A stretch of DNA of 64,000 nucleotides from Vulcanimicrobiales bacterium (GTDB lineage: Bacteria > Vulcanimicrobiota > Vulcanimicrobiia > Vulcanimicrobiales > Vulcanimicrobiaceae): the NCBI GenBank assembly GCA_038231455.1, contig JBBRLI010000006.1, positions 111,404 to 175,403 of the forward strand, written 5' to 3'. Positions 11,611-39,284 of the stretch are shown piece by piece. Under the pieces are notes generated by a model, which worked only from the letters and a program-made list of their open reading frames with translations, had not been told where the DNA came from and searched no databases. The position numbers and the translations under genes were made by a program. Each line of letters starts with the position of its first letter. Within the stretch, counting starts at the first letter, position 1.

Positions 11611-12057
11611 TTGGCCGCCGATCGACCGCTCTTTACCGGGTCAGTCGAACACAGCCTTGACGACAAGGGTCGCCTCGTCGTGCCCGCCCGCTTCCGCGAA
11701 CGCCTCGGCGCCGGCTTCTTCTTAACGATCGCCGAGCCCGACCCGTGCCTCGCCCTCTACCCGGCCCCGACGTGGGCCGAGTTCTGCGCCAAGCTCGAAG
11801 CCGCGCCGACTAAGGACGCGCGCTACCGGAGCTTCGTCCGGCACGTCTTCGCGAATACGGAAGAACTCTCGTGCGATAACCAGGGACGCCTCGTCATCCC
11901 CGGTCATCTGCGTGCCCACGCGAAAATCGAAAAAGACGTTGTCTCCGTTGGTTCGCTCACGCGTATCGAAGTCTGGGGTCGCGAACGCTATAAAGAGCAA
12001 GCCAAGGCTGCGGCGACGGAGTTGTTCGACTTCGCCACCGAGCTTGGGCTGTATTAG
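11611..12057 (+). CDS. mraZ: Division/cell wall cluster repressor MraZ
   Basis: HSLDDKGRLVVPARFR and CDNQGRLVIP (two DxxGR repeats); first gene of dcw. Confidence 0.95.
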   Translation: MAADRPLFTGSVEHSLDDKGRLVVPARFRERLGAGFFLTIAEPDPCLALYPAPTWAEFCAKLEAAPTKDARYRSFVRHVFANTEELSCDNQGRLVIPGHLRAHAKIEKDVVSVGSLTRIEVWGRERYKEQAKAAATELFDFATELGLY

Positions 12058-12060
12058 TGC

Positions 12061-12942
12061 GTGGGGCACGTCTCCGTATTGCCCGCCGAGTCAATCGCGG
12101 CGCTTGCTCTCGTCCCGGACGGCACGTATGTCGATGCGACGTTCGGAGCGGGCGGTCATACGGCGTTGATGCTCGCGGCACTCTCGCCCGCGGGGCGGAT
12201 CGTTGCCTTCGATGCGGATCCCGACGCGCGCGAGCGCGATCTGCGGGACCCGCGCGTGACGCTCGTGCATGCAAACTTTCGCGCGTTGCGCTCGGAATTG
12301 GAAGCGCGTGGGATCTCACAGATCGATGGGATTCTCTACGACTTGGGGACGAGTTCGATGCAACTCGATAGCGCCGATCGCGGCTTCTCGTTTCGCGAAG
12401 ACGCGCCGCTCGATATGCGCATGGATCCGACGCAAGGCGAATCGGTCGCCGAACTTCTTGCCGAGCGCGAAGAAAAAGAAATCGCCGACATCATCTTTGA
12501 ATTCGGCGACGAACGCGCAGCGCGCCGCATCGCGCGCGCGATCGTCCAGAAGCGTACGATTGGCCGCGTGCCGACGACGACGGGAGAACTCGCTTCGCTC
12601 GTCTCGGGCGTCGTGCATCAAGCGGGCAAGCGCGAACGCACGCATCCCGCAACGCGCACCTTTCAGGCGCTCCGTATTGCGGTCAACGACGAACTCGGCG
12701 CGTTACGCGACTCGCTCGATGCAGCGATGGGCGTCGTGAAACCCGATGGTCGGATCGCCGTCATCAGCTTTCACTCCCTCGAAGACCGCATCGTGAAGAC
12801 GACCTTCCGTGACGATCCGCGCGTCGCGCGGGTGACGCGCAAACCGATCGTGCCCACAGGTGAAGAAACCGCCGCCAATCCCCGTTCGCGTAGCGCGAAG
12901 CTCCGCGTTGCCGCCGTTCTTGCTCAGGAGTCCGACGCATGA
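12061..12942 (+). CDS. rsmH: 16S rRNA m4C1402 methyltransferase
   Basis: HVSVL, YVDATFGAGGH, DLGTSSMQLD, HPATRTFQALRIAVNDEL, NPRSRSAKLR. Confidence 0.96.
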   Translation: MGHVSVLPAESIAALALVPDGTYVDATFGAGGHTALMLAALSPAGRIVAFDADPDARERDLRDPRVTLVHANFRALRSELEARGISQIDGILYDLGTSSMQLDSADRGFSFREDAPLDMRMDPTQGESVAELLAEREEKEIADIIFEFGDERAARRIARAIVQKRTIGRVPTTTGELASLVSGVVHQAGKRERTHPATRTFQALRIAVNDELGALRDSLDAAMGVVKPDGRIAVISFHSLEDRIVKTTFRDDPRVARVTRKPIVPTGEETAANPRSRSAKLRVAAVLAQESDA

Positions 12943-13373
12943 TTGCCCCGCAGCGAGTTCCCCAATACGAGATCCCGCGTTCGCGCGAACGCGCAAAACA
13001 GGCTACCCGCCGACGGTCGACGCGCGCCAAAGCGCGTGCGTACGTCGGTCTTGGGCGTATCGCGGTTGCCGTCGGCCTCATCGTCGTTCCGCTCATGGTG
13101 TATGTGATGCTCACGGCGAACCTCACGGGCATGCACTATGCGGTCGCGCGCGCGGAGACGCAGCGTACGACGCTCACGGATGAAACGCAGCGCCTCGACG
13201 ATAAAATTGCGCAGCTCGAATCGCGCGAACGCCTCTCGGCCGTCGCCGCAAAACTCCATATGCACGATCCGCGCGAGTACGCGGTCGTCGCCTTACCGAA
13301 TCCCGCCGCGAAGCCGAAACCCAAAGGCATTGCGTTTCTCGGGAGCATGGGCGACTGGTTCAGTCGGCAGTAG
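12939..13373 (+). CDS. ftsL: Cell division protein FtsL-like
   Basis: Basic N-terminus, single TM, coiled coil ending LESRERLSAVAAKLHM; position between rsmH and PBP. Confidence 0.75.
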   Translation: MIAPQRVPQYEIPRSRERAKQATRRRSTRAKARAYVGLGRIAVAVGLIVVPLMVYVMLTANLTGMHYAVARAETQRTTLTDETQRLDDKIAQLESRERLSAVAAKLHMHDPREYAVVALPNPAAKPKPKGIAFLGSMGDWFSRQ

Positions 13374-15125
13374 GTGGCCGCACGTTCGTTTTCGCGCGTC
13401 GCTCCCGGGCGCGCGAAGATCACGTTCTACGCGATCGTCGGGATCGCGCTTTTTCTTTCTTGGCGGCTCTATGACGTCCAGATCCGTCAAGGTCCGCATT
13501 TAGCGGCGATCGCCCAAAGCCAGCGTTCCGATACGGTCGAACTCTTTGCCAAGCGCGGCACCATCACCGATCGCGAGGGCAACGTGCTCGTGCGCTCGAT
13601 GCCCTCCGAGAGCGTCTCCGCCGTCCCGACGAATATCGTCGATCCGCTCAAGACCGCAACGGAACTCGCGCCGATCCTCGGCATGAAAGCGCACGATATC
13701 GAGCTTGCGCTGCGCGATCGTTCGCAGTTCCGCTGGCTAGCGCGAAAAATCTCGCACGACGTCGCGCTTCGCGTCGCCGCGCTCAATGTTACCGGTATCG
13801 CGATCGTTCGGGAAGAGACGGGCACGCGCTTTACGCCTGCCGGTCATCTCGCATCGACCGTGCTTGGCTTTGTCGGCGTCGATGAATCCGGGCTCGAGGG
13901 GCTCGAGTCGGCATTCGATACGTATCTGAGAGGCACGACCGGAAAGATGAAAATCGAGGCCGATCAGTTCGGCCGTGCGATTCCATTTGCCGAGACGCGG
14001 ATCATCGAAAAAGCGCACCCCGGTCGCCACATCCAACTCGCGCTCGATTCGTACTTGCAGTTCGCAACGGAACGCGCGCTGCGCGACCGCGTGCACGAAT
14101 CGCACGCGCGCAGCGGCACGGCGATCGTCATGGATCCGAACACGGGCGAGATTCTCGCGCTTGCAAACGCGCCCGATTACGAGCCCGCGCACTTCTACCG
14201 CTTTTCGGCCGACGCCAGGCGCGACCGCGCAGTGATGGATGCCTACGAGCCGGGTTCGACGTTTAAATTGATAACGGCGGCCGCCGCGCTCGAGTCGCAC
14301 CATATCGGACCCAATGCCATGTTTCCAGCGCTCGATTCGCTTGAAGTCGGCGGCCGGGTCATTCACAATGCCGAGGACGGCCTGATGGCGGGCGGCGGCG
14401 GAAGCGAATCGCTCGAGCAGATCATCGCGCTCTCGCACAATGTCGGCGCGGCCGAGATCGGCATCGCGACAGGTCCGCGCGATCTTTATAAAACGATCCG
14501 CGCGTTTGGCTTCGGCGACCCCACCAACATCGAACTTCCCGGTGAAAATCCGGGCATCGTGCCGCCGCCCGATCAGTGGAGCGGCAGCTCCACCGCGACG
14601 ATTTCGTTTGGCCATGGGATCTCGACGACGCCGATCGCGCTCGTGCGCGCGTATGCCGCAATCGCCAACGGCGGTTTGCTGCTGCGCCCGCGTATCGTAC
14701 ACGCACTCATCGGTGAAGACGGCGCCCCGTTCTTCACCTACCCAACGGAAATCGAACACCGCGCGATCTCTGTGCAGACCGCGGCGACCTTGCGCCGCTA
14801 TCTCCGGGCCGTCGTCATGCGCGGCACCGGGAAAGACAACGCGCAAATTCCCGGGTATACGACGGCTGGGAAAACCGGCACCGCGCAAGTGGTCGAAAAC
14901 GGACGCTACGAACCGGGCGAATACATCGCCTCGTTTATCGGGTATGTCCCGGCGGAACGTCCGAAGTTCGTGATTTTTGTGAAGATCGAGCGGCCGCGCG
15001 GCGTGTACTACGGCGGCACGGTCGCAGCACCGGTGTTCGCGCAACTCGCGCGCATTGCAATGCTGCATGCGGGCGTCTTGCCGACGGCGGCGGCAAAATC
15101 GCGGCTCGCGGCGAAAGCGCCGTAA
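13374..15125 (+). CDS. ftsI: Class B penicillin-binding protein (FtsI/PBP3)
   Basis: KRGTITDREG, YEPGSTFK (SxxK), SHN (SxN), GKTGTAQ (KTG); no PASTA domains. Confidence 0.92.
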   Translation: MAARSFSRVAPGRAKITFYAIVGIALFLSWRLYDVQIRQGPHLAAIAQSQRSDTVELFAKRGTITDREGNVLVRSMPSESVSAVPTNIVDPLKTATELAPILGMKAHDIELALRDRSQFRWLARKISHDVALRVAALNVTGIAIVREETGTRFTPAGHLASTVLGFVGVDESGLEGLESAFDTYLRGTTGKMKIEADQFGRAIPFAETRIIEKAHPGRHIQLALDSYLQFATERALRDRVHESHARSGTAIVMDPNTGEILALANAPDYEPAHFYRFSADARRDRAVMDAYEPGSTFKLITAAAALESHHIGPNAMFPALDSLEVGGRVIHNAEDGLMAGGGGSESLEQIIALSHNVGAAEIGIATGPRDLYKTIRAFGFGDPTNIELPGENPGIVPPPDQWSGSSTATISFGHGISTTPIALVRAYAAIANGGLLLRPRIVHALIGEDGAPFFTYPTEIEHRAISVQTAATLRRYLRAVVMRGTGKDNAQIPGYTTAGKTGTAQVVENGRYEPGEYIASFIGYVPAERPKFVIFVKIERPRGVYYGGTVAAPVFAQLARIAMLHAGVLPTAAAKSRLAAKAP

Positions 15126-16564
15126 TGCTCGACATGGGGACGCTTGCTGCGTTCGTTCCCGAGGGTCGTCTCGTCGGTTCTCCCGATATCGCCATCTCGG
15201 CGCTGGCGACGGACTCGCGCCGCGTTACGCCGGGAACGGTGTTCGTTGCGCTGCGCGGCGCGCATGTGGATTCGCATGCGTTCGTCGGTCAGGCAATCGA
15301 GCGCGGTGCCGTCGGTGTCGTTCTCGAACAAGAGCAAGCGCTCGCCGTCCCGCAACTGATCGTACCGGATGCAACGCTCGCGCTCTCAACCTTGAGTGCA
15401 AAATTCTTTGGCGATCCCTCGGCGCGCATGCACGTCGTGGGCATTACCGGAACCAACGGCAAGACAACGACGACGCACCTCGTTCGAGCAATTCTCGAGG
15501 CGGCCGGCCGTTCGTGCGGCGTGATCGGAACGCTTGGCGCTTCGCTCGGCGGTCGCGCGTGGTCGCTTGAAAACACGACGCCGCTCGCGCTCGAACTCCA
15601 GGGTCTCCTGGCGACGATGCGCGACGGCGGCGCGTCGGCGGTCGCAATGGAAGTCTCTTCGCACGCGCTCGCGCTGCACCGCGTCGATGACGTGCATTTC
15701 GCCGTCGCGGCATTCACGAATCTCACGCGCGATCATCTCGACTTCCACGCGACGCCCGAAGCCTACGAAGCTGCGAAGCGGCGTTTGTTCGACCTCGCAC
15801 CGATTGCCGTCGTCAACGTCGATGACGCCGCGGGCGTGCGGCTGGCCGAAGACCTGCGCGCGCGCGGCACGCAGACGATTGCGTACGCTATCCGTGCGAA
15901 GAATGCGGATCTCATCGCGCGCGACGTTGTCGTTCGGAGCGAAGGCTCGACCTTCACGCTCGATGACCGTTTCGTGAAACTCTCGCTTCCCGGCCGGTTC
16001 AACGTTGAGAATGCGCTCGCCGCAATCGGCATCGCCGATGCGCTCGGGATCGCGCGTTCGGTTGCGATCGAAGCACTTGCCGATGTCGCTGCGCCGCCTG
16101 GGCGCATGGAACGCATCGCAAGCGACGGCATCGATGTTATCGTCGACTATGCCCATACGCCCGATGCCCTGAGTAACGTGCTGCAAGCCGCACGCGAGGG
16201 CACGCGCGGGCGCCTGGTCGTCGTCTTCGGTTGCGGCGGCGACCGCGATCCGGGCAAGCGCCCGCAAATGGGCGCGATTGCCGCGCGGCTTGCCGATCGC
16301 GCCATCGTGACCTCGGATAATCCACGCAGCGAAAATCCGCAAGCGATCGCCGATGCGATCCTCGTCGGTGGCAAAGGCGAGGTCGAACTCGACCGCGGCG
16401 CGGCGATCCGTCGCGCGATCGCCGATGCGCGTGCGGGCGACGTCGTGGTGATCGCGGGCAAAGGTCATGAAACATACCAGATCATCGGCGATCAGACGCG
16501 TCACTTCGACGATCGAGAAGAAGTGCGCGCCGCGTTGGTCGCACGTTCGGCGGGTGCCGTATGA
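15125..16564 (+). CDS. murE: UDP-MurNAc-dipeptide:meso-DAP ligase
   Basis: GITGTNGKTTT, MEVSSHAL, FTNLTRDHLDFH, VDYAHTPD, DNPR (mDAP-type specificity motif), AGKGHE. Confidence 0.95.
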   Translation: MLDMGTLAAFVPEGRLVGSPDIAISALATDSRRVTPGTVFVALRGAHVDSHAFVGQAIERGAVGVVLEQEQALAVPQLIVPDATLALSTLSAKFFGDPSARMHVVGITGTNGKTTTTHLVRAILEAAGRSCGVIGTLGASLGGRAWSLENTTPLALELQGLLATMRDGGASAVAMEVSSHALALHRVDDVHFAVAAFTNLTRDHLDFHATPEAYEAAKRRLFDLAPIAVVNVDDAAGVRLAEDLRARGTQTIAYAIRAKNADLIARDVVVRSEGSTFTLDDRFVKLSLPGRFNVENALAAIGIADALGIARSVAIEALADVAAPPGRMERIASDGIDVIVDYAHTPDALSNVLQAAREGTRGRLVVVFGCGGDRDPGKRPQMGAIAARLADRAIVTSDNPRSENPQAIADAILVGGKGEVELDRGAAIRRAIADARAGDVVVIAGKGHETYQIIGDQTRHFDDREEVRAALVARSAGAV

Positions 16565-17940
16565 TCGTGCGTTTTGCCGAGGCGATCTCGGCGCTCGATG
16601 CGCGCATTCTTGGCGCCGGCGTGCCGCCGCGTTCACTCGAAATCACGACCGATACGCGCGCCGTCATACCGGGTCAAACATTTCTTGCCTTACGCGGCGA
16701 ACGCTTCAACGGACACGACTTTGTCGCGCAGGCACTGGCCGCGGGCGCTGCCTGCGCGATCGTTTCCGATGCAAGCGTCATCCCGCCCGAGGCGTGTGGT
16801 TTGCTCGTTGCCGACACGCTCGTGGCGTACATGACGCTTGCGGCGCTCGCCCGCGGTCAGCGGCACGGAACGGTGATCGCGATTACCGGCAGCACGGGTA
16901 AGACGACGACGAAGTCGTTCTTGCGCGATCTCATCGCCCGCTGCGGCCACGACGTTCAAGCGACGCCGGAAAATGAAAACAACGAGATCGGTGTGAGCAA
17001 GTTTCTCCTGAGTCTGTCACCGGGCGAAGACGAGTCGGTTGCCATCGTCGAGATGGGTGCGCGTCACGCGGGCGACATCGCGCCGCTGGCACAGATGGCT
17101 CGACCGCACGTCGGTATCCTTACCAATATCGGCGAGGCGCACTTGGAGATTATGGGCTCGCGCGAAGCAATTGCCGAAACGAAGTGGGGCCTCTTCGCAA
17201 GTGGTGCGCGCGCGGTCATCGGCCTTGCCGATGCGGCGTCGCGCGCGCGTGCGGCCAGTCTGCCCCAGGTGCCGCAGTGGTTCGGCATCGACGATGAAAG
17301 CGTCCCGGCAACCGAACATGCCGCAATCGTCAATGGCACGCATGAACTCGTCGTCCACGAACGCGGCAGCACGACGCGCTATCCGATCGACGTGCGCGTA
17401 CCGGGCGATCACAATCGTGCCAACATCGCTGCGGCGATCGCGGGCGCGATCGCGGTCGGCATCGATCCGGCGCAGCTCGCGCCGCATGTTGGCGCACTCG
17501 AACTCCCGCACGGCCGTTACGAGAAATTCATCGCCGGTGATGTGACGATCGTTTTCGATGCGTACAACGCCTCGATGAGCGGTACGCTTGCGACGCTTTC
17601 GGCATTCGCTGCGGAGTCTGCGGAGCGGCGGATCGCGGTCCTCGGCTCGATGGCCGAGCTCGGTCCGGATGCCGCCTCCATGCACGAACTCGTCGGTGAA
17701 GCGGCCGCGCACAGCAACCTCGACGCGCTGATCGTCGGCGGTGCTTTTGCGGATGCGATCGCTCGCGGCGCGCGTCGGAGCGGTTTTTCCTCAGATGCCA
17801 TTCACTCGTACGAAGACAACATCCATGCAGCAAAGCTTCTGCGCGAGCTCGCCCGGCCCGGTGATATCGTGCTGCTTAAAGGCTCCCGGATGTACAAGAT
17901 GGAGCAAATCGCGGAGGCGTTTGGGGTGAGCGTCCGATGA
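16561..17940 (+). CDS. murF: UDP-MurNAc-tripeptide:D-Ala-D-Ala ligase
   Basis: TDTR, LRGERFNGHDF, ITGSTGKTTTK, NNEIG, EMG, DAYNAS, LLKGSR. Confidence 0.94.
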   Translation: MIVRFAEAISALDARILGAGVPPRSLEITTDTRAVIPGQTFLALRGERFNGHDFVAQALAAGAACAIVSDASVIPPEACGLLVADTLVAYMTLAALARGQRHGTVIAITGSTGKTTTKSFLRDLIARCGHDVQATPENENNEIGVSKFLLSLSPGEDESVAIVEMGARHAGDIAPLAQMARPHVGILTNIGEAHLEIMGSREAIAETKWGLFASGARAVIGLADAASRARAASLPQVPQWFGIDDESVPATEHAAIVNGTHELVVHERGSTTRYPIDVRVPGDHNRANIAAAIAGAIAVGIDPAQLAPHVGALELPHGRYEKFIAGDVTIVFDAYNASMSGTLATLSAFAAESAERRIAVLGSMAELGPDAASMHELVGEAAAHSNLDALIVGGAFADAIARGARRSGFSSDAIHSYEDNIHAAKLLRELARPGDIVLLKGSRMYKMEQIAEAFGVSVR

Positions 17941-18629
17941 TGCCGCTGGCCGTTCACGAACCGCCGCTACCCGATGGCCTCGTCGCGATCCCCGTGCGCA
18001 CGCGCCTTGTCGGCGCCGGCGACGATTTGCTCGCACTCGTGCGCGAAGCGCTGCGCGGCATCGCCAAACCCGGCGACGTCGTGGCGATCGCGGAAACCGC
18101 TGTTGCGATCGCCCAGCGCCGCTTCGTGCCTGCCGAATTCGTGCGACCCTCGATGCTTGCATATCAGCTCTCGCGCCGAGCCGGGGCGCTTGCGACCGTG
18201 AGCCAACCGGAATCGCTGCAGATTGTGATCGATCAAGTCGGCACGTGGCGCGTGGTGTACGCCGCCGCCGCGCACGTCGTGGGTCGACTGCTCGGCAAGC
18301 ACGGGATGTTTTATGAAATTCTGGGCGAGGCGATTGCGGCAATCGACGGCTACACCGGCACGCTTCCGCCGTACGAACGCGCGATTGTCTTCGGTCCGCT
18401 CGAACCCGATCGCGTCTGCGCGGAGTTTGCCGCAGCGCTCGACATGGGCGTTGCGATCGTTGATGCCAACGATCTGCGTAAGGCCAAAGCCTTAGGCGTC
18501 TCGCCGAACCTCGTGCGCACGCACGTGGAACTGGCACTGCTCGGCAACCCGCACGGCAATTCCGACGAGCAAACGCCGCTCGTCGTCTTGACGTGGCGCG
18601 GCGCGGGAAAGAATCCGCTCTGCGCATGA
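17937..18629 (+). CDS. Coenzyme F420-0:gamma-glutamyl ligase (CofE)-like amide ligase of unknown substrate
   Basis: IPVRTRLV.AGDDL, GDVVAIAETAVAIAQRR, AIDGYTGTLPPYERAIVFGP, GVAIVDANDL, GNPHGNSDEQTP; ATGA overlaps with both murF and mraY. Confidence 0.75.
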   Translation: MMPLAVHEPPLPDGLVAIPVRTRLVGAGDDLLALVREALRGIAKPGDVVAIAETAVAIAQRRFVPAEFVRPSMLAYQLSRRAGALATVSQPESLQIVIDQVGTWRVVYAAAAHVVGRLLGKHGMFYEILGEAIAAIDGYTGTLPPYERAIVFGPLEPDRVCAEFAAALDMGVAIVDANDLRKAKALGVSPNLVRTHVELALLGNPHGNSDEQTPLVVLTWRGAGKNPLCA

Positions 18630-19624
18630 ATGTCGCCGCGCTCGCCGCCTTGCTCATCACCTTCGGCATCGCATACGCGCTCGCGCCACTGCTGATCGAA
18701 CGGCTGCATGCGCTCAAATACGGACAGCTTGCCTACGAAGATGCGCCGAAGACGCACCTAAAGAAATCCGGCACGCCGACGATGGGCGGGTTGCTCTTCC
18801 TCATCGCGCCGCTCGTGCTGCTCGTTTTCGATCGGAGCCGTAGCGCCATCGGCCTTGCGGTGCTGGTAATCGGAATGGCGACGATCGGCTTCCTCGATGA
18901 CTACGCGTCGATCAAAGCGGGACGCAACCGCGGTTTGCGCGCGCGCGAAAAGTTTCTTGCGACCGCTGTTATTGCTGCCGCGTTTCTCTGGATCGTCGGC
19001 GGTGAAGCCTTTACCGGCGCGTGCGGTCTGCGGCCGCTGCAAGCGAGCGGCCTGTATTGGTTCGGACACGCGTGCGGACTTGCGGTGCCCCTCTGGCTCT
19101 GGTGGGCGCTCGGCATCCTTGCGATCACGGGCTCGACACACGCCGTGAATTTGACCGACGGTCTGGACGGACTCGCGGCGGGAACGATCGTGCCGCCGCT
19201 GATCGTTCTGTTTCTCTTCGCGCAGTTCTTCGCGGGTACGACGAGCGCGGCGACGCTATGTGCGGCAAGTTTGGGCGCGATCGGCGCGTTCCTGATTTTT
19301 AATCGTCACCCTGCGCGCGTCTTCATGGGCGATACCGGATCGCTCGCGCTCGGCGGCTTGCTCGCCGGGACGGCAATCGTCAGCGGGGCGACGTTGATCG
19401 TTCCCATCATCGGCGCGGTGTTCGTTGCCGAAGCACTCTCCGTTATGATACAAGTGGCATCGTTCAAAATGACCAAACGTCGCGTTTTCCGTATGAGCCC
19501 GCTTCACCATCACTTCGAACTCGGCGGCTGGCCGGAGACGAAAGTCACGCGCCGCTTCTGGACGGCATCGGTCGCCGTCTCGGCGCTCGCACTCGTCCTT
19601 GCCTTTGCGGTGAGGAGCGCATGA
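18626..19624 (+). CDS. mraY: Phospho-N-acetylmuramoyl-pentapeptide transferase
   Basis: HLKKSGTPTMGG, IGFLDDY, AVNLTDGLDGL, VFMGDTGSLALG, MSPLHHHFEL; ATG 18626 chosen for ATGA coupling. Confidence 0.96.
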   Translation: MNVAALAALLITFGIAYALAPLLIERLHALKYGQLAYEDAPKTHLKKSGTPTMGGLLFLIAPLVLLVFDRSRSAIGLAVLVIGMATIGFLDDYASIKAGRNRGLRAREKFLATAVIAAAFLWIVGGEAFTGACGLRPLQASGLYWFGHACGLAVPLWLWWALGILAITGSTHAVNLTDGLDGLAAGTIVPPLIVLFLFAQFFAGTTSAATLCAASLGAIGAFLIFNRHPARVFMGDTGSLALGGLLAGTAIVSGATLIVPIIGAVFVAEALSVMIQVASFKMTKRRVFRMSPLHHHFELGGWPETKVTRRFWTASVAVSALALVLAFAVRSA

Positions 19625-21036
19625 ACGATCGTCCAACCGGAACGTTCGATCGCGACGAGCACGTCCTGGTCATCGGTCTTGGCCGCAGCGGACGCGCGAG
19701 CGCCGAAGTGCTGCGCGAACGCGTCGGCTCGCTGATCATTACGGATGAAAAACCCGAAAGCGAGCTGCGCGAGGCAATTGCCGACCTAGCAGCGCTCGGC
19801 GTGCGTTTCTTCGCACCCGACCAACTCGGCCCCGAGCTTGCGTCGATCACCGCCGCCGTGCTCTCGCCGGGTATCCCGCTCAACGGCGAACTCGTGCGCC
19901 GAATTCAGAGCGCGGGTATCCCGGTCTTCAGCGAAGTTGAAGTGGCCTATCGCATTTGCAAAGCGCCGATCGTCGCGGTTACCGGCACCAAAGGAAAGAC
20001 GACGACGACAACGCTGATCGGCGAAATTTTCAAACGCGCCGGCAAGACCACCTTTGTCGGCGGCAATATTGGCAATGCGCTCATTCACGAGACGGCGATT
20101 GCGACGGCAAACGACTGGATCATCGCCGAGGTGAGTTCGTTCCAACTCGAAACGATTCGTTCGTTCAAACCGAAAATTTCGGCGATCACCAACCTCTCAC
20201 CCGACCATCTCGATCGCTACCACTCGATGGACGAGTACGCGGAAGCAAAGTTTCGCATCTTTGCAAATCAAGGCCCGGGCGACACGTTCGTCGGCAATTT
20301 CGATGACGAGCGCATCGCTGCGCTCCTGGCCGGCGGCGAAGACGAACGCTCGCGTATCCATACGCAAGCACGCTGGTTCGCGCGCGAACCGCACCGTGAG
20401 ACGGCGCTCTATCTGCGCAACGAGCACACGATCGTCTACGCGCCGCCGACGGGCGATCCGCGTCCGGTTGAGATCATGGACGTCGCCGAGATCCCGCTGC
20501 TCGGCAACCACAATATCGAAAACGTGATGGCCGCGATTCTCGTCGGTCTCTCCGCGGGTCTCGAGCGCGAAGCGATCGCTTCGGCCGTGCGCGACTTTCA
20601 AGCGCTCTCGCACCGGCTCGAAACCGTCGCCGATGCGGGCGGCGTACTCTACGTCGACGATTCGAAGGCCACCAATCCCGGGAGCGTGATCGCGGCGCTG
20701 CGTTCGTTCGGGCGTCCGATCGTGCTCATCGCCGGCGGCAAAGCCAAAGGCACGGACTTTGCCGAACTCGGCCGCGTCGCAAGCTCGCGCACGAAAGCCG
20801 TCGTCCTCATCGGCGAGGCGGGCCCCGAGATCGCAAAGTCGGTCAAGCGTGCGGCGGTGTCGTTTGCCGACTCGATGGCAGACGCCGTCGAGCAGGCGAT
20901 GAAGATCGCAACATCGGGCGATGTCGTGCTGCTCTCACCGGGCTGCGCGTCATTCGATATGTTCCGTTCGGCGGAAGACCGCGGCGAACAGTTCGCCGCT
21001 GCCGTGCGCGATCGCGTCGGTGTTCGTGTACCCTAG
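19621..21036 (+). CDS. murD: UDP-MurNAc-L-Ala:D-Glu ligase
   Basis: IGLGRSG, LSPGIP, VTGTKGKTTTT, EVSSFQLE, NLSPDHLDRY, DDSKATN, LLSPGCASFDMF. Confidence 0.95.
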   Translation: MNDRPTGTFDRDEHVLVIGLGRSGRASAEVLRERVGSLIITDEKPESELREAIADLAALGVRFFAPDQLGPELASITAAVLSPGIPLNGELVRRIQSAGIPVFSEVEVAYRICKAPIVAVTGTKGKTTTTTLIGEIFKRAGKTTFVGGNIGNALIHETAIATANDWIIAEVSSFQLETIRSFKPKISAITNLSPDHLDRYHSMDEYAEAKFRIFANQGPGDTFVGNFDDERIAALLAGGEDERSRIHTQARWFAREPHRETALYLRNEHTIVYAPPTGDPRPVEIMDVAEIPLLGNHNIENVMAAILVGLSAGLEREAIASAVRDFQALSHRLETVADAGGVLYVDDSKATNPGSVIAALRSFGRPIVLIAGGKAKGTDFAELGRVASSRTKAVVLIGEAGPEIAKSVKRAAVSFADSMADAVEQAMKIATSGDVVLLSPGCASFDMFRSAEDRGEQFAAAVRDRVGVRVP

Positions 21037-22192
21037 CGCGCGAGCAGGCCGGGTCGCAGGCCGAGACCGCGAGCCTGCCGCGAAGCTGCATCAAAGCGCG
21101 CTTGGGCCGCCCGATGCGCTGTTGTTCGCCGTCGTCGCGGCGCTCATCGGTATTGGTCTTGTGATGATCTACAGCGCGTCGAGTGCGACGGCGTATGCCG
21201 ATTTCCACGACACCGCGCACTATCTCAAGCGCCAATCGATGTGGCTCGTCGTCGGCCTTGTGGTGTCGTTTGCCGCGTATCGCTGCGACTACCGCAAACT
21301 CAAGGCGCTCGCGCCATTTGCCGTCGGCGTAACCGTCGTCGCGCTACTGCTCACGCTGATCCCGCACATCGGCTTTTCGGTCGGCGGCGCACGGCGCTGG
21401 CTTGGGATCGGCCCGCTCAGCTTTCAGCCCTCGGAGTTTGCGAAGCTGGCTCTCGTTCTCTATCTTGCAACGGCGCTCGGAAACTGGGGCGAGCGCGTGC
21501 GGTCGCTCTCGCGCGGTGTCTTTCCGATCATGTGCGTCGCGCTCGCGCTCGCACTTCCGATTCTCGTCGAACCCGATATGGGAACGGCCTCGCTGCTCAT
21601 CTTCACGACGTTCGTGATGCTCTTCGTTGCGGGCGCACGCGTCGAGCACATCCTCATGGTGGTCCTTGCAATGCTGCCCGCCGTTGCGATCACGATTGGT
21701 GCGAGCGCGTACAAACGCGCGCGCATCCTTGCTTTTCTCGATCCTTGGAAAGACGCGCAGAACGCCGGCTTCCACATCGTTCAATCGCTTTTGGCGCTTG
21801 GCAGCGGCGGGGCACTTGGCGTTGGTCTCGGCGCCTCGCGTCAAAAGTTTTTCTATCTGCCCGAGCAGTTCAACGACTTCATCTTTGCGATCATCGGCGA
21901 GGAACTCGGACTGCTCGGAACGATCTCGGTGGTCATTCTTTTCCTGTTGCTTGCATATCGCGCCGTGCGGATCGCCCTGAATGCGCCGGATCGTTTCGGA
22001 TTTTTCCTCACGATCGGCTGCACGTGCATCATCATCATTCAGGCCTTCATCAATATCGGGGTGGTAACGTCATCGTGGCCGGTCACCGGCGTGCCGCTCC
22101 CGTTCATTTCTGAGGGCGGGACGTCGCTCATCGTTTCGATGATCGCCGTCGCCCTCATCATCAACGTCGGCCGACACCGCTCCACCCGATGA
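21026..22192 (+). CDS. ftsW: SEDS peptidoglycan polymerase FtsW
   Basis: GLVMIYSASS, GARRWL, FQPSEFAKL, EPDMGT, YLPEQFNDFIFAIIGEELG, PVTGVPLPFISEGGTS; start approximate (GTG 21020 or 21026). Confidence 0.93.
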   Translation: MYPSARAGRVAGRDREPAAKLHQSALGPPDALLFAVVAALIGIGLVMIYSASSATAYADFHDTAHYLKRQSMWLVVGLVVSFAAYRCDYRKLKALAPFAVGVTVVALLLTLIPHIGFSVGGARRWLGIGPLSFQPSEFAKLALVLYLATALGNWGERVRSLSRGVFPIMCVALALALPILVEPDMGTASLLIFTTFVMLFVAGARVEHILMVVLAMLPAVAITIGASAYKRARILAFLDPWKDAQNAGFHIVQSLLALGSGGALGVGLGASRQKFFYLPEQFNDFIFAIIGEELGLLGTISVVILFLLLAYRAVRIALNAPDRFGFFLTIGCTCIIIIQAFINIGVVTSSWPVTGVPLPFISEGGTSLIVSMIAVALIINVGRHRSTR

Positions 22193-23352
22193 AACTGCGT
22201 GTGGCCTTTGCGGGCGGCGGAACGGGCGGCCATATCTATCCGGCGCTTGGGATCGACGATGCCATACGCGCCCAGTTCGCACCGGAGGCGTACGAGGCGG
22301 AATTTTTCGGAAACGCGGGCGGCCTCGAACGCGATCTCGTGCCGAGCTTCATCCCGCTTGCGTTCGTTCCGAGCGCGCCGTTGCAGCGCAAGTTTTCGTT
22401 CGGCACGCTACGCACGATCGCGCTGAACGCCGCAGGCGTTGTTGCAGCGATGGCACAGCTTGCGCGTTTCAAACCACTCATGGTCATCGCAACGGGTGGA
22501 TATGTCTGTTTCCCTGTCGTCGTAGCCGCGCGGATATTACGGACGTTGCGCGTCGTACGCTGTGGTATTGCGCTGCTTGAAATCAACGCGACTCCCGGCT
22601 TGACGAATCGACTGCTCGCGCCGCTGGTCGATGAAGTGTGGATCACGTATGCAGCATCGGCCGCGCTTTTCGGCAAGAAAGCGGTCCTCACCGGAACGCC
22701 TACGCGCGCGTCGCTGCGCCGGCGTCACGTCGCCTCCGAAGCGCGCGCGCGGCTTGGTTTGAGTCCGACGAAGACCACGATCGTTGCGATGGGCGGAAGC
22801 CAAGGCGCGCGCTCGATCAACGAAGCGATCGCGGCCCTTGTGACGCGCCGTAGTCTTCAATCGAATTGGCAAGTGCTGCACGTCAGCGGTGCGCGCGATT
22901 ATGCTTACATGCAGGCGGAAGAACGCGAGCTTGCCGAGGGCAACACCGTGCGGCTCGTCGAGTATCTCGCCGACCCGACCGATGCGTATGCAGCCGCCGA
23001 TGTTGTGATCGCGCGCGCGGGTGCCTCGACGCTCGCCGAACTTGCCGTGACGGGTACGCCCGCCATCCTTATCCCCTATCCGTTCGCCGCTGAGGCGCAC
23101 CAGCAGAAAAACGCCGAACTTTTTGCGGCAGCCGGTGCCGCAACGATCGTTGATGATGGCAAGCTCGATGGCGACAAACTGTGGTGGGCGCTCCTTGAGG
23201 TGCTCGCGCCGGAAGAACAGCGCACGATGCGTGCGGCGATGCGCGCGCTTGCGCCGGCGGATGCGGGAGCCGCGATTGTGAGCCGGATTCAAACCTTAAT
23301 TCCCGCGCGGGTGATCGAGAAGACCCCTTCGAACGAGACATCCCGTGGTTAA
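22189..23352 (+). CDS. murG: Lipid I GlcNAc transferase MurG
   Basis: AGGGTGGHIYP, TGGYV, PGLTNR, GGSQGA, RAGASTLAE, HQQKNA. Confidence 0.95.
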   Translation: MKLRVAFAGGGTGGHIYPALGIDDAIRAQFAPEAYEAEFFGNAGGLERDLVPSFIPLAFVPSAPLQRKFSFGTLRTIALNAAGVVAAMAQLARFKPLMVIATGGYVCFPVVVAARILRTLRVVRCGIALLEINATPGLTNRLLAPLVDEVWITYAASAALFGKKAVLTGTPTRASLRRRHVASEARARLGLSPTKTTIVAMGGSQGARSINEAIAALVTRRSLQSNWQVLHVSGARDYAYMQAEERELAEGNTVRLVEYLADPTDAYAAADVVIARAGASTLAELAVTGTPAILIPYPFAAEAHQQKNAELFAAAGAATIVDDGKLDGDKLWWALLEVLAPEEQRTMRAAMRALAPADAGAAIVSRIQTLIPARVIEKTPSNETSRG

Positions 23353-24730
23353 CGGAGGGGTCCATCTCGTCGGAATCGGCGGGATCGGCATGAGCGCGAT
23401 CGCGCGCCTGCTACTCGCAACGGGCGAGCGCGTGTACGGTTCGGATGTGCGACGCACGCCGCTAATCGAGGCGCTCGAACGCGAAGGTGCCAAGATTGCG
23501 ATCGGTCACCGCGCGGAGAACGTCGGCGACGTACGTTTACTCGTCGTCAGTTCGGCGATTCGGCCGGACAACCCGGAGTATATGGCCGCACAGCAGCGCC
23601 AGATTCCGATCGTCGTACGGGGCGAAATGCTCGCGCGGATCATCGGCCCGCGACAGACGCTCGCCATCGCCGGAACGCACGGCAAGACGACGACGACCGC
23701 CATGGCCGCCTCGATTTTTGAAGACGCCGGATTCGATCCGACGATCGCCGTCGGGGGCGAACGCATCGATACACAGAACAACGCGCGCGCCGGTGCCGGT
23801 GTGTGGTTCATCACCGAAGCCGATGAGAGCGACGGAACGTTTCTCGCGCTTTCCCCGACGATCGCCGTCGTCACGAATATCGAGAACGACCATATCGCAA
23901 ACGATACCGAGATGGCCGGACTGATCGATCAGTTCATGACGTTTCTTGGCAAAGTTCCGGAAGCGGGCTCGGCGGTCGTCGGGATCGATAACCGCCATTC
24001 CGCCGCACTTGCCGCAAAGCTGAAAGCGCCCAACGTGCGGACGTTCGCAACGCGCGATTCGGCAGCGACCTATTTTGCGCGAAACATTCGATACGATGGA
24101 CTCGGTTCGCGCTTCGAGCTTATCGAGCGCGGCGAATTGCTCGGTGAGATCGACCTGCGCGTCCCCGGCGAGATCAACGTGATGAATGCGCTTGCAGCCG
24201 CGGCCGTGTCCCGCGCGGCCGGTGTGGATTTTGCGAGTATCGCGCGCGCCCTCGCGGGTTTTGGCGGTGTGCGGCGGCGCTTTGAGGTCGTCGGACGCTC
24301 GGAGCGCATGACCGTCATCGATGATTACGCGCACCATCCGACGGCCGTCGAACAGACGATTGCCGCCGCGCGCCGGGTGACGACGGCGAAAATCGTCGTC
24401 GCATTTCAGCCGCACCGCTATACGCGCACGAAGTATCTGGCCGCTGATTTCGCGCGCGCGCTTTCCGGCGCCGACTGCGTCTATCTCGCGCCGGTCTACG
24501 CCGCGGCGGAAGATCCGATTCCCGGCGTGAGCGAACGCTCGATCGGCGATCCGCTTGCAGCGGCTGGGACCGATGTTCGGTACGTCGAGGATGTCGAAGC
24601 CCTTATTCCGACGTTGAGGGCCGAAGCGCCGTCGGGCGCACTCGTACTCATGCTCGGCGCCGGTTCGATTTCGAACGTCGCACACCGACTCGGTGAGGCG
24701 ATCGATGCGCCGCGAGCCGTGGCTCCGTGA
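23345..24730 (+). CDS. murC: UDP-MurNAc:L-Ala ligase
   Basis: HLVGIGGIGMSAIA, AGTHGKTTTT, EADESDG, GVRRRFE, DDYAHHPT, FQPHRYTRT. Confidence 0.96.
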   Translation: MVNGGVHLVGIGGIGMSAIARLLLATGERVYGSDVRRTPLIEALEREGAKIAIGHRAENVGDVRLLVVSSAIRPDNPEYMAAQQRQIPIVVRGEMLARIIGPRQTLAIAGTHGKTTTTAMAASIFEDAGFDPTIAVGGERIDTQNNARAGAGVWFITEADESDGTFLALSPTIAVVTNIENDHIANDTEMAGLIDQFMTFLGKVPEAGSAVVGIDNRHSAALAAKLKAPNVRTFATRDSAATYFARNIRYDGLGSRFELIERGELLGEIDLRVPGEINVMNALAAAAVSRAAGVDFASIARALAGFGGVRRRFEVVGRSERMTVIDDYAHHPTAVEQTIAAARRVTTAKIVVAFQPHRYTRTKYLAADFARALSGADCVYLAPVYAAAEDPIPGVSERSIGDPLAAAGTDVRYVEDVEALIPTLRAEAPSGALVLMLGAGSISNVAHRLGEAIDAPRAVAP

Positions 24731-25683
24731 CCGCTGCAACGACGGCAAACCCGAGCGTGCTCGAGCCGCGCGACCGCGACGAACTCCGCGCGTACTTCGG
24801 CGATCGCGCGCGATTCGACGAACCGCTCGCAGCCTACACCTGGTGGAAAATCGGCGGCCCTGCCGATGCCTACATCAGCGTTGAAACCAGCGACGATCTC
24901 GCGTTCGTCATGCGCCTATGCCTGCGTCGTCGGCTGCCGTGGTTCGTGCTCGGAAACGGTTCGAACGTGCTCGTCGGCGACGGTGGGATGCGGGGTCTGG
25001 TCTTGCGACTAGGCGGCGACTTTGGCGCGATCGATTTTGCGGACGGCGATGACGCCAAGGTCGTCGTGACCGCCGGTGCATCCGCCTCGTTGCCGCAGCT
25101 CGTCGCGCAAGCGGCCTCGCGCGGCGCGATCGGCATCGATGGACTCGCGGGCGTGCCCGGCACGGTTGGCGGCTCGCTCTTCATGAACGCCGGGACGGAT
25201 CGCGAGATCGGCGAGTTCGTGCGCGAAGTGCACGTGCATACGCTCAATAAACCCGACGCACATCCGGTGAGCGTGCAGTATTACTACCGCCACACCACGC
25301 TCGAACGCGACGCGATCGTCTCGCGCGTGGTGCTCGCCTTCGATCGCGGCGAGGTCGCGGAGGTTCGCGAGCGTCTACAAGACCGGCTGATCCGCCGCAA
25401 GGCCACGCAGCCGCTGCAGTGGCCCAATGCCGGGTCGTGTTTTCGAAATCCGGCAGGCGATAAGGCCGGGCGGCTCATTGAGGCCGTCGGGGCAAAGGGC
25501 TGGCGCGTCGGTGGGTCGGAAGTCTCCGGTGTGCACGCCAACTTCATCGTCAACACCGGTGGCGCTTCGGCCTTGGATGTGACCACGCTCCTCGCGCGCG
25601 TGCGCCGCGCCGTCGGCGATAAGTTCGGCATCGACTTACAACTCGAAGTGCATCTTGTCGGAGAATTCGTTGCCGAAACGTAA
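24727..25683 (+). CDS. murB: UDP-N-acetylenolpyruvoylglucosamine reductase
   Basis: YTWWKIGGPAD, LGNGSNVL, PGTVGGSLFMNAG, TQP, NAGSCFRNP, HANFIVN. Confidence 0.94.
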   Translation: MTAATTANPSVLEPRDRDELRAYFGDRARFDEPLAAYTWWKIGGPADAYISVETSDDLAFVMRLCLRRRLPWFVLGNGSNVLVGDGGMRGLVLRLGGDFGAIDFADGDDAKVVVTAGASASLPQLVAQAASRGAIGIDGLAGVPGTVGGSLFMNAGTDREIGEFVREVHVHTLNKPDAHPVSVQYYYRHTTLERDAIVSRVVLAFDRGEVAEVRERLQDRLIRRKATQPLQWPNAGSCFRNPAGDKAGRLIEAVGAKGWRVGGSEVSGVHANFIVNTGGASALDVTTLLARVRRAVGDKFGIDLQLEVHLVGEFVAET

Positions 25684-26602
25684 GATCGCCGTCGTCATGG
25701 GCGGTCCGAGTGCCGAACGTGAAGTCTCGATCGCAACGGGGAACGGCGTTATGCGCGCGCTCGATAAACTCGGGTACGATGCGCGTTCGCTCGACTTCGA
25801 TGCGCGCTTCATCGAAGCGCTGCGCGAACTCGAACCCGATGTCGTCTTTAACGCGTTGCACGGCAAAGGCGGCGAAGACGGTCAACTGCAAGGCATCCTC
25901 GAGTGGATGGGACTTGCCTACACCGGCAGTGACCTTGCGGGCTGCGCCCTTGCAATGGACAAGCACAACACCAAGAAGTTACTCGCCGCCGAAGGTCTGC
26001 CGACGCCGGCTTGGGACACCTATGACTTGCGCGGCGGTACGCTGCCGTTGCTGCCGGGTTCGCTGAATTTGCCGCTCGTCGTAAAACCGCGCGCGGATGG
26101 ATCGAGCGTCGGCGTTACGATGGTGAAGACGCACGAACAGTGGACGGCCGCGATGATCGGCGCTGCCGCGCGCACGAACGACGTGCTCGCGGAAGAATAT
26201 ATTCCGGGCCGCGAATTCTCGTGCGGGATTTTGGGCGAAGAAGCGCTGCCGGTCGTCGAGATTGCCGCGAGCGACGAGTTTTATACGTACGACGCAAAAT
26301 ACAAGCCCGGCGGCAGCCGCCATTACGTTCCCGCGCCGATCGATCCGGATCTCGCATCGCGCTTGCAGATGCTCGCGCTCTCGGTGCATCGCCTCATCGG
26401 CCTGCGTGACTATTCACGCACCGATTTCATCGTGACCAAAGAAGGCCGCCCGTATATTTTGGAGATCAACGCACTGCCGGGCCTGACGCCCTCGAGCCTC
26501 TTGCCCGATGAGTGCAACGCGATCGGCATTTCATACGAAGCGCTCATCGATCGCCTCGTCGGATATGCCGACGGCCGGAGAAGCATCGCGCTAACGACCT
26601 AA
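25670..26602 (+). CDS. ddl: D-Ala-D-Ala ligase
   Basis: GGPSAEREVS, LHGKGGEDG, MDK, VVKPRADGSSVG, FYTYDAKY, EINALPGLT; TTG 25670 follows GGAG (alternative 25655). Confidence 0.95.
   Translation: MPKRKIAVVMGGPSAEREVSIATGNGVMRALDKLGYDARSLDFDARFIEALRELEPDVVFNALHGKGGEDGQLQGILEWMGLAYTGSDLAGCALAMDKHNTKKLLAAEGLPTPAWDTYDLRGGTLPLLPGSLNLPLVVKPRADGSSVGVTMVKTHEQWTAAMIGAAARTNDVLAEEYIPGREFSCGILGEEALPVVEIAASDEFYTYDAKYKPGGSRHYVPAPIDPDLASRLQMLALSVHRLIGLRDYSRTDFIVTKEGRPYILEINALPGLTPSSLLPDECNAIGISYEALIDRLVGYADGRRSIALTT

Positions 26603-37631: not shown

Positions 37632-39284
<1,653 letters not shown>

Follow-up and report, generated by a model that had tools for sequence, protein, structure and literature searches.

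Several enzyme systems are known to modify a free carboxylate of the peptidoglycan stem peptide in a manner that depends on a nucleoside triphosphate (NTP), including MurT/GatD, which acts on the D-Glu of lipid II, and the AsnB/LtsA-type enzymes, which act on meso-diaminopimelate (meso-DAP); AsnB-type enzymes amidate meso-DAP in some Gram-positives. A biochemically described activity that attaches cadaverine or putrescine to peptidoglycan in Selenomonas and Veillonella, at the alpha-carboxyl of D-Glu, was reportedly named 'lipid intermediate:diamine transferase' by Kamio and co-workers. A ligase fold described in another pathway is that of CofE, the coenzyme F420-0:L-glutamate ligase, which is shared by FbiB's N-terminal domain (PF01996, TIGR01916; structures 2PHN, 2G9I and 7ULD). 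Here, we analyzed a CofE-like gene in a 64,000-nucleotide stretch of DNA from a Vulcanimicrobiales bacterium (GenBank assembly GCA_038231455.1, contig JBBRLI010000006.1; the whole stretch is hereafter called the window), where the gene lies between murF and mraY in the division and cell wall (dcw) cluster. We found that it belongs to an uncharacterised CofE-like orthologous group, of which it is the short form embedded in the dcw cluster, that its product is, with near certainty, a CofE-fold enzyme and not an F420 ligase, and that it likely acts in the synthesis of peptidoglycan precursors.

Passages of PMC10628300, PMC12826042 and bioRxiv 10.1101/2021.05.31.446380 describe Negativicutes peptidoglycan as carrying cadaverine or putrescine at the alpha-carboxylate of stem-peptide D-Glu, and other diderm Terrabacteria as using CsaB-made pyruvylated polymers instead; according to passages of PMC10628300, the peptidoglycan-bound polyamines of Negativicutes are required for OmpM-based outer-membrane attachment. 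The polyamine-attaching enzyme is not named in the passages of these three sources, of which PMC10628300 and the bioRxiv paper describe the linkage as an amide. A passage of PMC9434261 places N-acetylputrescine at residue 2 in the cyanelle wall. Moreover, a full-text literature search, with most subscription journals outside its coverage, returned nothing that ties a CofE-like or PF01996 protein to peptidoglycan or polyamine attachment.

The CofE-like gene in the murF-mraY junction

The CofE-like gene (P0001) overlaps murF and mraY by 4 nt at either end, and both ATGA overlaps lie exactly where the initial annotation had placed them. Pfam scans of the window showed that the dcw cluster around the gene is otherwise canonical. 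The features are as follows.

17937..18629, + strand, CofE-like gene (P0001), 230 aa, ATG start (open reading frame (ORF), PF01996, AlphaFold2 (AF2), Foldseek and hhalign)
16561..17940, + strand, murF (UDP-MurNAc-tripeptide:D-Ala-D-Ala ligase), 459 aa (Pfam Mur_ligase, Mur_ligase_M and Mur_ligase_C)
17937..17940, + strand, ATGA overlap of the CofE-like ATG and the murF TGA (sequence)
18626..18629, + strand, ATGA overlap of the CofE-like TGA and the mraY ATG, the ATG being in the mraY frame (sequence)
18626..19624, + strand, mraY (phospho-MurNAc-pentapeptide translocase), 332 aa from the ATG (Pfam Glycos_transf_4 and MraY_sig1)
11611..26602, + strand, dcw cluster: mraZ, rsmH, a 144-aa ORF, ftsI, murE, murF, the CofE-like gene, mraY, murD, ftsW, murG, murC, murB and ddl (Pfam scans)

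An alternative mraY start, a GTG at 18593, would extend the overlap with the CofE-like gene to 37 nt. The MurE of the cluster carries the DNPR motif at residue 398, in agreement with the earlier reading of its sequence. PF01996 matched the 230-aa protein with 42 bits (cut-off 25), at profile positions 2-80 of 218 alone, and the GC content at third codon positions (GC3) of the gene is 0.76, similar to that of the neighbouring genes. Given that this composition resembles that of the neighbours and that a homologue is present in 198 of the 201 genomes of the phylum (170 of the 171 high-quality ones), the gene is real. The phylum tallies of the homologue, CofE, CofD and the N-terminal domain reported here include genomes G177 and G128, which are flagged as unpublished; the remaining claims do not draw on these two. 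A role of the gene as a replacement of Ddl was ruled out, as a normal ddl lies inside the dcw cluster. We also predicted a complex of MraY with the CofE-like protein; its score was 0.00 in a run made without controls, and we used it neither for nor against any interpretation.

Throughout the window's class (families f1-f3), the homologue has the CofE-like form of about 230 aa, and the order murF, CofE-like gene, mraY, murD was found at all 33 class loci, 30 from f1 and f2 and three from f3, the window's own included. The CofE-like alignment starts about 4 nt before the end of the murF stop in most of them. All four genomes examined from other classes have mraY directly next to murF, as expected for a junction that is normally uninterrupted, and no mur gene lay within about 5 kb of the homologue at any of the 11 loci searched with Mur queries. 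The position in the dcw cluster is a class-level trait and not a phylum-level one; the conservation in relatives that had been proposed as a check holds within the class only. The cytoplasmic core route that leads from MurA to MraY is regarded as complete. That a whole class strictly conserves an additional enzyme at the MurF-MraY junction, translationally coupled to its neighbours, implies an undescribed precursor step or modification.

Fold and residues compared with CofE, and the F420 pathway

The AF2 model of the CofE-like protein, built on 49 family sequences, had a predicted local distance difference test score (pLDDT) of 93.0 and a predicted template modelling score (pTM) of 0.88. A Foldseek search of this model against the PDB at E<=0.001 gave five matches, all of them Archaeoglobus fulgidus CofE chains with template modelling (TM) scores of 0.55-0.63 and 19-21% identity; the best match was 2PHN (probability 1.00, E 9e-10, TM 0.63/0.58), and the other CofE entries matched were 7ULD and 2G9I. 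In hhalign, the alignment of the 49 family sequences matched that of 30 true CofE proteins of the same phylum with 98.5% probability over 194 columns. The two share an N-terminal beta-alpha unit with a GD...R motif, an Asp at a strand end (D176, D150 in CofE) and a C-terminal G...P strand, and D47/D32, R62/R47, D176/D150, G123, G130, P154, G207 and P214 are invariant in both. The CofE fold that had been assigned from the sequence was thus recovered, and the hhalign match shows common descent of the CofE-like family and CofE.

The two nucleotide-site motifs of CofE, the residues of which we take to bind GTP and Mn, are altered in the family. The KxxSKAEGR motif reads E-x-x-V-A-I-x-Q-G-R: K43, which is invariant in the CofE of the phylum, corresponds to I58 (Ile in 98% of the orthogroup), S42 to A57 (Ala in all rows), E45 to Q60, and H38 to E53. 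The D-S/T-x-G-R motif reads D-A-N-D-L, with S151 and F152 corresponding to D179 and L180, and the arginines of the GRxWR that follows it are lost; within both motifs only R62 and D176 are retained. A near-invariant polar set peculiar to the CofE-like family (T22, E53, Q60, Y126, D137, T142, N178, D179 and N204) looks like an active site, though a remodelled one, and the changes of His, Lys and Ser to Glu, Ile and Asp would be compatible with a change of co-substrate, a cationic one replacing the anionic glutamate. The CofE-like protein also has a helical insert at about residues 97-135, and in the hhalign alignment, which involves no coordinate superposition, the CofE segment DYRGQ...T faces a gap about 22 columns long. 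In passages of PMC10861534, a domain-swapped beta-hairpin of CofE contacts F420 and wraps over its site. Because the gap lies opposite this hairpin segment, the F420-contacting hairpin was not recovered in the family.

Likewise, the CofE equivalog models TIGR01916 and NF009809 scored 24.2 bits against a cut-off of 180.65 and 26.7 against 274, respectively, and true CofE proteins of the same phylum score 198-272 bits on the CofE equivalog model. The window's genome (G000, 93.7% complete) contains a single PF01996 match. In model searches of G000, the best score was 20 bits for CofD (cut-off 257), 59 for CofC (cut-off 105), and 300 and 266 for CofH (cut-off 374), so that the lack of other F420 genes, first remarked for the window, extends to the whole genome; the gene stands in a cell-wall context rather than among cof/fbi genes. 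The two genes behind the CofH scores are adjacent CofH/CofG-like radical-SAM genes (contig C11:36199-37161, L006, 300 bits; 38085-39098, L007, 266 bits), which are probably futalosine-pathway menaquinone genes of the MqnE/MqnC type. The cultured relative Vulcanimicrobium contains menaquinone-9 (MK-9), as stated in passages of PMC9758169.

Across the phylum, 39 of 201 genomes have true CofE above the cut-off and 38 have CofD (E<=1e-20); these genomes all belong to families f6 and f18-f21. Each was found in 0 of the 131 genomes of the window's class, and the phylogenetic profile against F420 genes agrees with a function outside F420 synthesis. Genomes of the phylum with real CofE and CofD additionally carry the long form of the CofE-like protein described below; in G040, for example, true CofE adjoins cofD on contig C204, and the long form lies on C507. 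Since F420-capable genomes carry both, the two proteins are functionally distinct paralogues. PF01996 was absent from 11 of 11 bacterial control genomes, including Synechococcus, Thermus, Deinococcus, Thermotoga, B. subtilis and E. coli.

Long forms, fusions and the Negativicutes gene pair

In the other classes of the phylum, the homologue is the C-terminal part of a 343-524-aa ORF, with 36-46% identity, at 21 of 21 loci. The AF2 model of one long form (pLDDT 90.3, pTM 0.88) shows three parts: residues 2-25 form a transmembrane helix, 30-168 an Ig-like beta-sandwich and 195-400 the CofE-like domain. A fold search with the sandwich of this N-terminal domain matched generic Ig-like sandwiches alone (ApaG, adaptin ear and MSP). 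The profile of the N-terminal domain matched none of the 131 genomes of the window's class, against 67 of 69 in the other classes, and a hidden Markov model of 97 sequences did not find the domain in G000 (best E 5.1). We interpret its absence from the window's class as secondary loss; in the simplest history, a membrane-anchored enzyme would have lost its anchor upon entering the murF-mraY junction. Overlapping opposite-strand ORFs aside, no gene cluster was shared as a neighbour by more than five of the 21 long-form loci. In genus g51, the long form directly follows a fusion of the S and T components of an energy-coupling factor (ECF) transporter and a duplicated ATP-binding cassette ATPase on the same strand (L041:1304-4403); this arrangement behind ECF-transporter genes was seen in closely related genomes only.

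We then searched species-representative genomes with a single Sporomusa protein as the query. This confirmed 404 relatives, the best 80 of which are almost all from Negativicutes, including Sporomusa, Pelosinus, Propionispora, Dendrosporobacter, Anaerovibrio lipolyticus, Megasphaera, Selenomonas sputigena, Mitsuokella multacida and metagenome-assembled genomes (MAGs) of Veillonellaceae; Megasphaera hominis is also among the Negativicutes carriers. The family is present in 296 of 301 sampled Negativicutes genomes, nearly always as a single copy, so that the profile against taxa with polyamine-modified peptidoglycan, an earlier suggestion, came out positive. The gene order at the best 80 of the 404 relatives is as follows.

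Thioesterase, 75/80 loci
Glutamate racemase murI, before the pair, 50/80 loci
Protein whose N-terminal helix is hydrophobic (median length 185 aa), immediately upstream of the CofE-like gene, 79/80 loci
CofE-like gene, 80/80 loci
RNase PH, 57/80 loci

The protein encoded immediately upstream is a homologue of the long form's N-terminal domain (BLASTP E 2e-12, 27% identity over 142 aa). One and the same system of two parts is thus split in Negativicutes, fused in most Eremiobacterota and, for the window's class, cut down to its catalytic part. A link to polyamines through the HDAC-like, hydantoinase and HgdB-like genes beside the Sporomusa orthologue was considered and dropped, as these genes occur at only about 30-36 of the 80 loci.

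In a quick maximum-likelihood tree of 83 rows (LG+G4, rooted on true CofE, with the Shimodaira-Hasegawa-like approximate likelihood ratio test (SH-aLRT) as the sole support measure), the whole CofE-like family forms one clade apart from true CofE (SH-aLRT 100). The dcw forms make up one clade (100), which is sister (94) to a clade of long forms, Negativicutes proteins and others, and the resulting group of 54 rows has a support of 92. The window's protein thus groups with the orthogroup of long forms and Negativicutes proteins, apart from true CofE and from two further subfamilies outside this orthogroup, one fused to AsnB and one linked to an AIR-synthase-related (AIRS) protein. The orthogroup also includes named members from Limnochordales, Thermodesulfobium, an Actinomycetota MAG and Cyanobacteria/Sericytochromatia MAGs. 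A Protein Atlas search returned PF01996-labelled clusters alone.

A search among longer proteins gave 73 relatives. Twenty-four clusters (at 90% identity) combine Mur-ligase and PF01996 domains, 20 of them at 700-771 aa, and some carry the name Candidatus Eremiobacteraceae. At the DNA level, locus L039 (genome G071) encodes MurF and the CofE-like domain in one 781-aa frame. L039 alone was in frame with murF: other open frames of 700-860 aa were rejected as MurF fusions, nearly all being alternative-frame artefacts of high GC, and most of the open frames of 500-790 aa around the gene at class loci L009-L037 are likewise alternative frames. Stop-to-stop open-frame lengths mislead in such high-GC genomes. 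The label of MurF fusion needs at least three changes on the maximum-likelihood tree.

Sixteen clusters of 665-911 aa carry a complete AsnB-type glutamine amidotransferase followed by a C-terminal CofE-like domain of the sister clade, among them P0225, P0229-P0231, P0334 and P0343; PF01996 is a precomputed call for 12 of the 16, the name Candidatus Roizmanbacteria is attached to one, and together they form their own clade. Single cases of fusion to an M20 peptidase and to a polysaccharide deacetylase were also found. In the P0276-type subfamily (named Limnochordia/Firmicutes), an AIRS-like gene of the PurM superfamily overlaps the start of the CofE-like gene (metagenome contigs, L184:4004-5038 and L190:4004-5011), and is thus a second conserved partner for a CofE-like enzyme.

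Proposed function and alternative explanations

We propose that the protein is a cytoplasmic, metal-dependent CofE-fold enzyme of an orthologous group separate from F420 CofE/FbiB, and that its putative substrate is a peptidoglycan precursor of the step between MurF and MraY, namely UDP-MurNAc-pentapeptide, lipid I or lipid II. By analogy with CofE, in which carboxylate activation and amide formation are presumed to be the shared chemistry, an NTP would first activate a free carboxylate of the stem peptide, and an amine would then capture it to give an amide-modified stem peptide. The best candidate carboxylate is the alpha-carboxyl of D-Glu, and the best candidate nucleophile is a di- or polyamine. 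In most lineages, the enzyme would be held at the membrane by the partner module of one transmembrane helix and an Ig-like beta-sandwich, which is fused in other Eremiobacterota classes, separate and adjacent in Negativicutes, and lost in the window's class. There, the 4-nt overlaps on both sides, and the MurF fusion in G071, would keep production in step with MurF and MraY. Given that amide formation needs carboxylate activation, an NTP-dependent ligase fold at the membrane beside the lipid-linked precursor, or expressed between MurF and MraY, fits such a role.

The proposed logic, modification of a late cytoplasmic or lipid-linked precursor, resembles that of MurT/GatD and AsnB/LtsA. The CofE-like protein is not homologous to either, MurT being a paralogue of the Mur ligases and AsnB belonging to the N-type ATP pyrophosphatases. 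The MurT_C domain was not found in G000 by a domain search whose positive control matched in Corynebacterium and Lactococcus, and the usual system for alpha-amidation of D-Glu was thus not detected in this genome; AsnB-type domains occur just as fusion partners of the sister CofE-like clade. The diamine-attaching activity of Selenomonas and Veillonella shares with the family its taxon distribution, a membrane-anchored partner at 79 of 80 loci, an adjacent murI at 50 of 80, and a ligase-type fold. It differs in that the window's organism is not a Negativicute, and the match of gene and activity is a genomic one.

Several points weigh against this interpretation. Because the Lys and Ser of CofE are replaced as described above, nucleotide binding may differ or be lost, and beyond the N-terminal 80 residues the similarity to CofE is detectable by profile or fold only. 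The contexts of sister subfamilies have no obvious tie to the cell wall: the P0276 type, with its AIRS-like gene, follows accA, pfk and pyk, and others are fused to AsnB-type amidotransferases or to an M20 peptidase. We take murI/racE to lie near rph in Bacillus, and the adjacency of murI in Negativicutes may partly be inherited gene order. Two clusters called as CofE-like plus MraY (P0301 and P0305) are topologically doubtful, because the N-terminus of MraY is periplasmic; a single-base error at the ATGA overlap would yield such a call, and we did not rely on these possible frameshift artefacts. Ligase activity, together with the nucleotide, carboxylate and amine, is predicted from the analogy. 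On balance, we give about even weight to the proposal that the protein is an amide ligase on a stem-peptide carboxylate of a peptidoglycan precursor. The identification of the amine as a polyamine, and of the orthogroup as the missing Negativicutes enzyme, is tentative. A wider reading is equally doubtful, namely that the CofE-like enzyme and the membrane Ig-like module together link di- or polyamines to the alpha-carboxyl of D-Glu and underlie OmpM attachment in Negativicutes, that Eremiobacterota, Limnochordales, Thermodesulfobium and Sericytochromatia are also polyaminated, and that the system was wired into the MurF-MraY step in the window's class.

The initial annotation had further suggested that the modification might serve to tether the outer membrane, and here the evidence is divided. 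The single protein with a surface-layer homology (SLH) domain in G000 is OmpM-like (C4:172526-172885; L182:1-1710, minus strand), with a signal peptide, SLH, coiled coil and barrel in a stop-to-stop frame of 931 aa. Its SLH domain carries W38-A-Y40 and T67-R-Y-E70, both tyrosines of which are highlighted as Negativicutes OmpM features in passages of PMC10628300. Among 30 SLH loci of the phylum, the TRAE position is aromatic in 29 (TRYE 20, TRWE 6, TRYQ 2 and SRYE 1), TRAE itself occurs in none, and WAY in nine. This tyrosine pattern appears to point in favour of a tether, opposite to the other evidence. The OmpM SLH/coiled-coil query matched just five of 15 high-quality genomes of the window's family and none of five in genus g4, all 44 genomes of which carry the CofE-like gene; in the other classes, almost every genome has 1-13 copies, and part of the window's family may have lost the OmpM tether or diverged strongly in it. 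Moreover, G000 has a single PS_pyruv_trans (CsaB-like) gene (C7:72211-73044, L183, 125.8 bits), although this family also matched nine of 14 control genomes, including E. coli and B. subtilis, and is not specific to pyruvylation of the SLH ligand. Vulcanimicrobium has thin peptidoglycan and an outer membrane with lipopolysaccharide according to passages of PMC9758169, which do not report its wall chemistry. Given that OmpM was unmatched in 10 of 15 family genomes and that a CsaB-like gene is present, a role in outer-membrane tethering is not supported for the window's lineage. Of the earlier interpretation, the fold, the non-F420 status and the synteny within the class were upheld, and the tether was not.

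The replaced motif residues also bear on a first alternative, in which the protein would be a cell-wall accessory that merely reuses the CofE fold and is devoid of ligase activity: it would link MurF to MraY as a scaffold or hand-over factor, or hydrolyse or proof-read the precursor. Such a role would accord with the exchange of Lys, Ser and Glu of KxxSKAEGR for Ile, Ala and Gln, the lost GRxWR arginines, the generic Ig-like interaction domain of the partner module, and a gene fused or coupled to MurF and coupled to MraY. However, about 20 polar or glycine positions, including D47, D137, D176, D179 and R62, are invariant or nearly so across several phyla, which is more typical of an active site than of a scaffold, and we consider an accessory role unlikely.

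Ligation of ammonia or an amino acid onto D-Glu or meso-DAP, in place of MurT/GatD or AsnB/LtsA-type amidation, would explain the fold and the dcw evidence in the same way as ligation of a polyamine, and both the MurT_C result in G000 and the 16 AsnB fusions of the sister clade are in line with it. Pfam scans, however, found no glutaminase partner in the dcw cluster, the family is near-universal in Negativicutes, whose documented D-Glu modification is a polyamine and thus favours amines, and the motif shifts to acidic residues suit a cationic substrate better than an amino acid. A nucleophile other than a polyamine therefore seems improbable to us.

A function outside peptidoglycan, such as ligation on another small metabolite or cofactor by a gene merely captured in the dcw operon of one class, would account for the 11 of 11 other-class loci lacking a nearby mur gene, for the position behind ECF-transporter genes in one genus, and for the sister subfamily beside glycolysis and acc genes with its AIRS-like partner. 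It sits poorly with the strictly conserved position and coupling at all 33 class loci in three families, with the MurF fusion verified in DNA and the many proteins of Mur-ligase plus PF01996, with the loss of the membrane anchor exactly in the lineage where the gene entered the dcw cluster, and with murI beside it in 50 of 80 Negativicutes loci; we regard this explanation as quite unlikely. Finally, a genuine F420-0:L-glutamate ligase, the reading of the source annotations ('coenzyme F420-0:L-glutamate ligase') to which the above-cut-off PF01996 score would correspond, is extremely improbable for a protein that misses the equivalog models by about 150-250 bits, occurs in a genome with CofD, CofC and CofH below cut-off and in a class lacking CofD and true CofE, coexists with real CofE in F420-capable relatives, and is deleted in the alignment for the segment that contacts F420 (hairpin role in passages of PMC10861534).

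If the proposed stem-peptide amide ligase is real, thousands of annotations as 'F420 ligase' in organisms that produce no F420 would be corrected, and the CofE fold would gain a second function. Veillonella parvula is genetically tractable, and the orthogroup offers a concrete candidate for the polyamine-attaching enzyme of Negativicutes, a gene never assigned in the literature searched, that can be tested in this species and in the cultured Vulcanimicrobium alpinus. New in this work are the split into short and long forms, the loss of the N-terminal domain in the dcw lineage, the homologous partner gene and near-universal presence in Negativicutes, and the candidate assignment. As a minor observation on the window's dcw cluster, the 144-aa ORF (12939..13373, + strand), which has no Pfam match, lies between rsmH and ftsI, at the usual place of ftsL.

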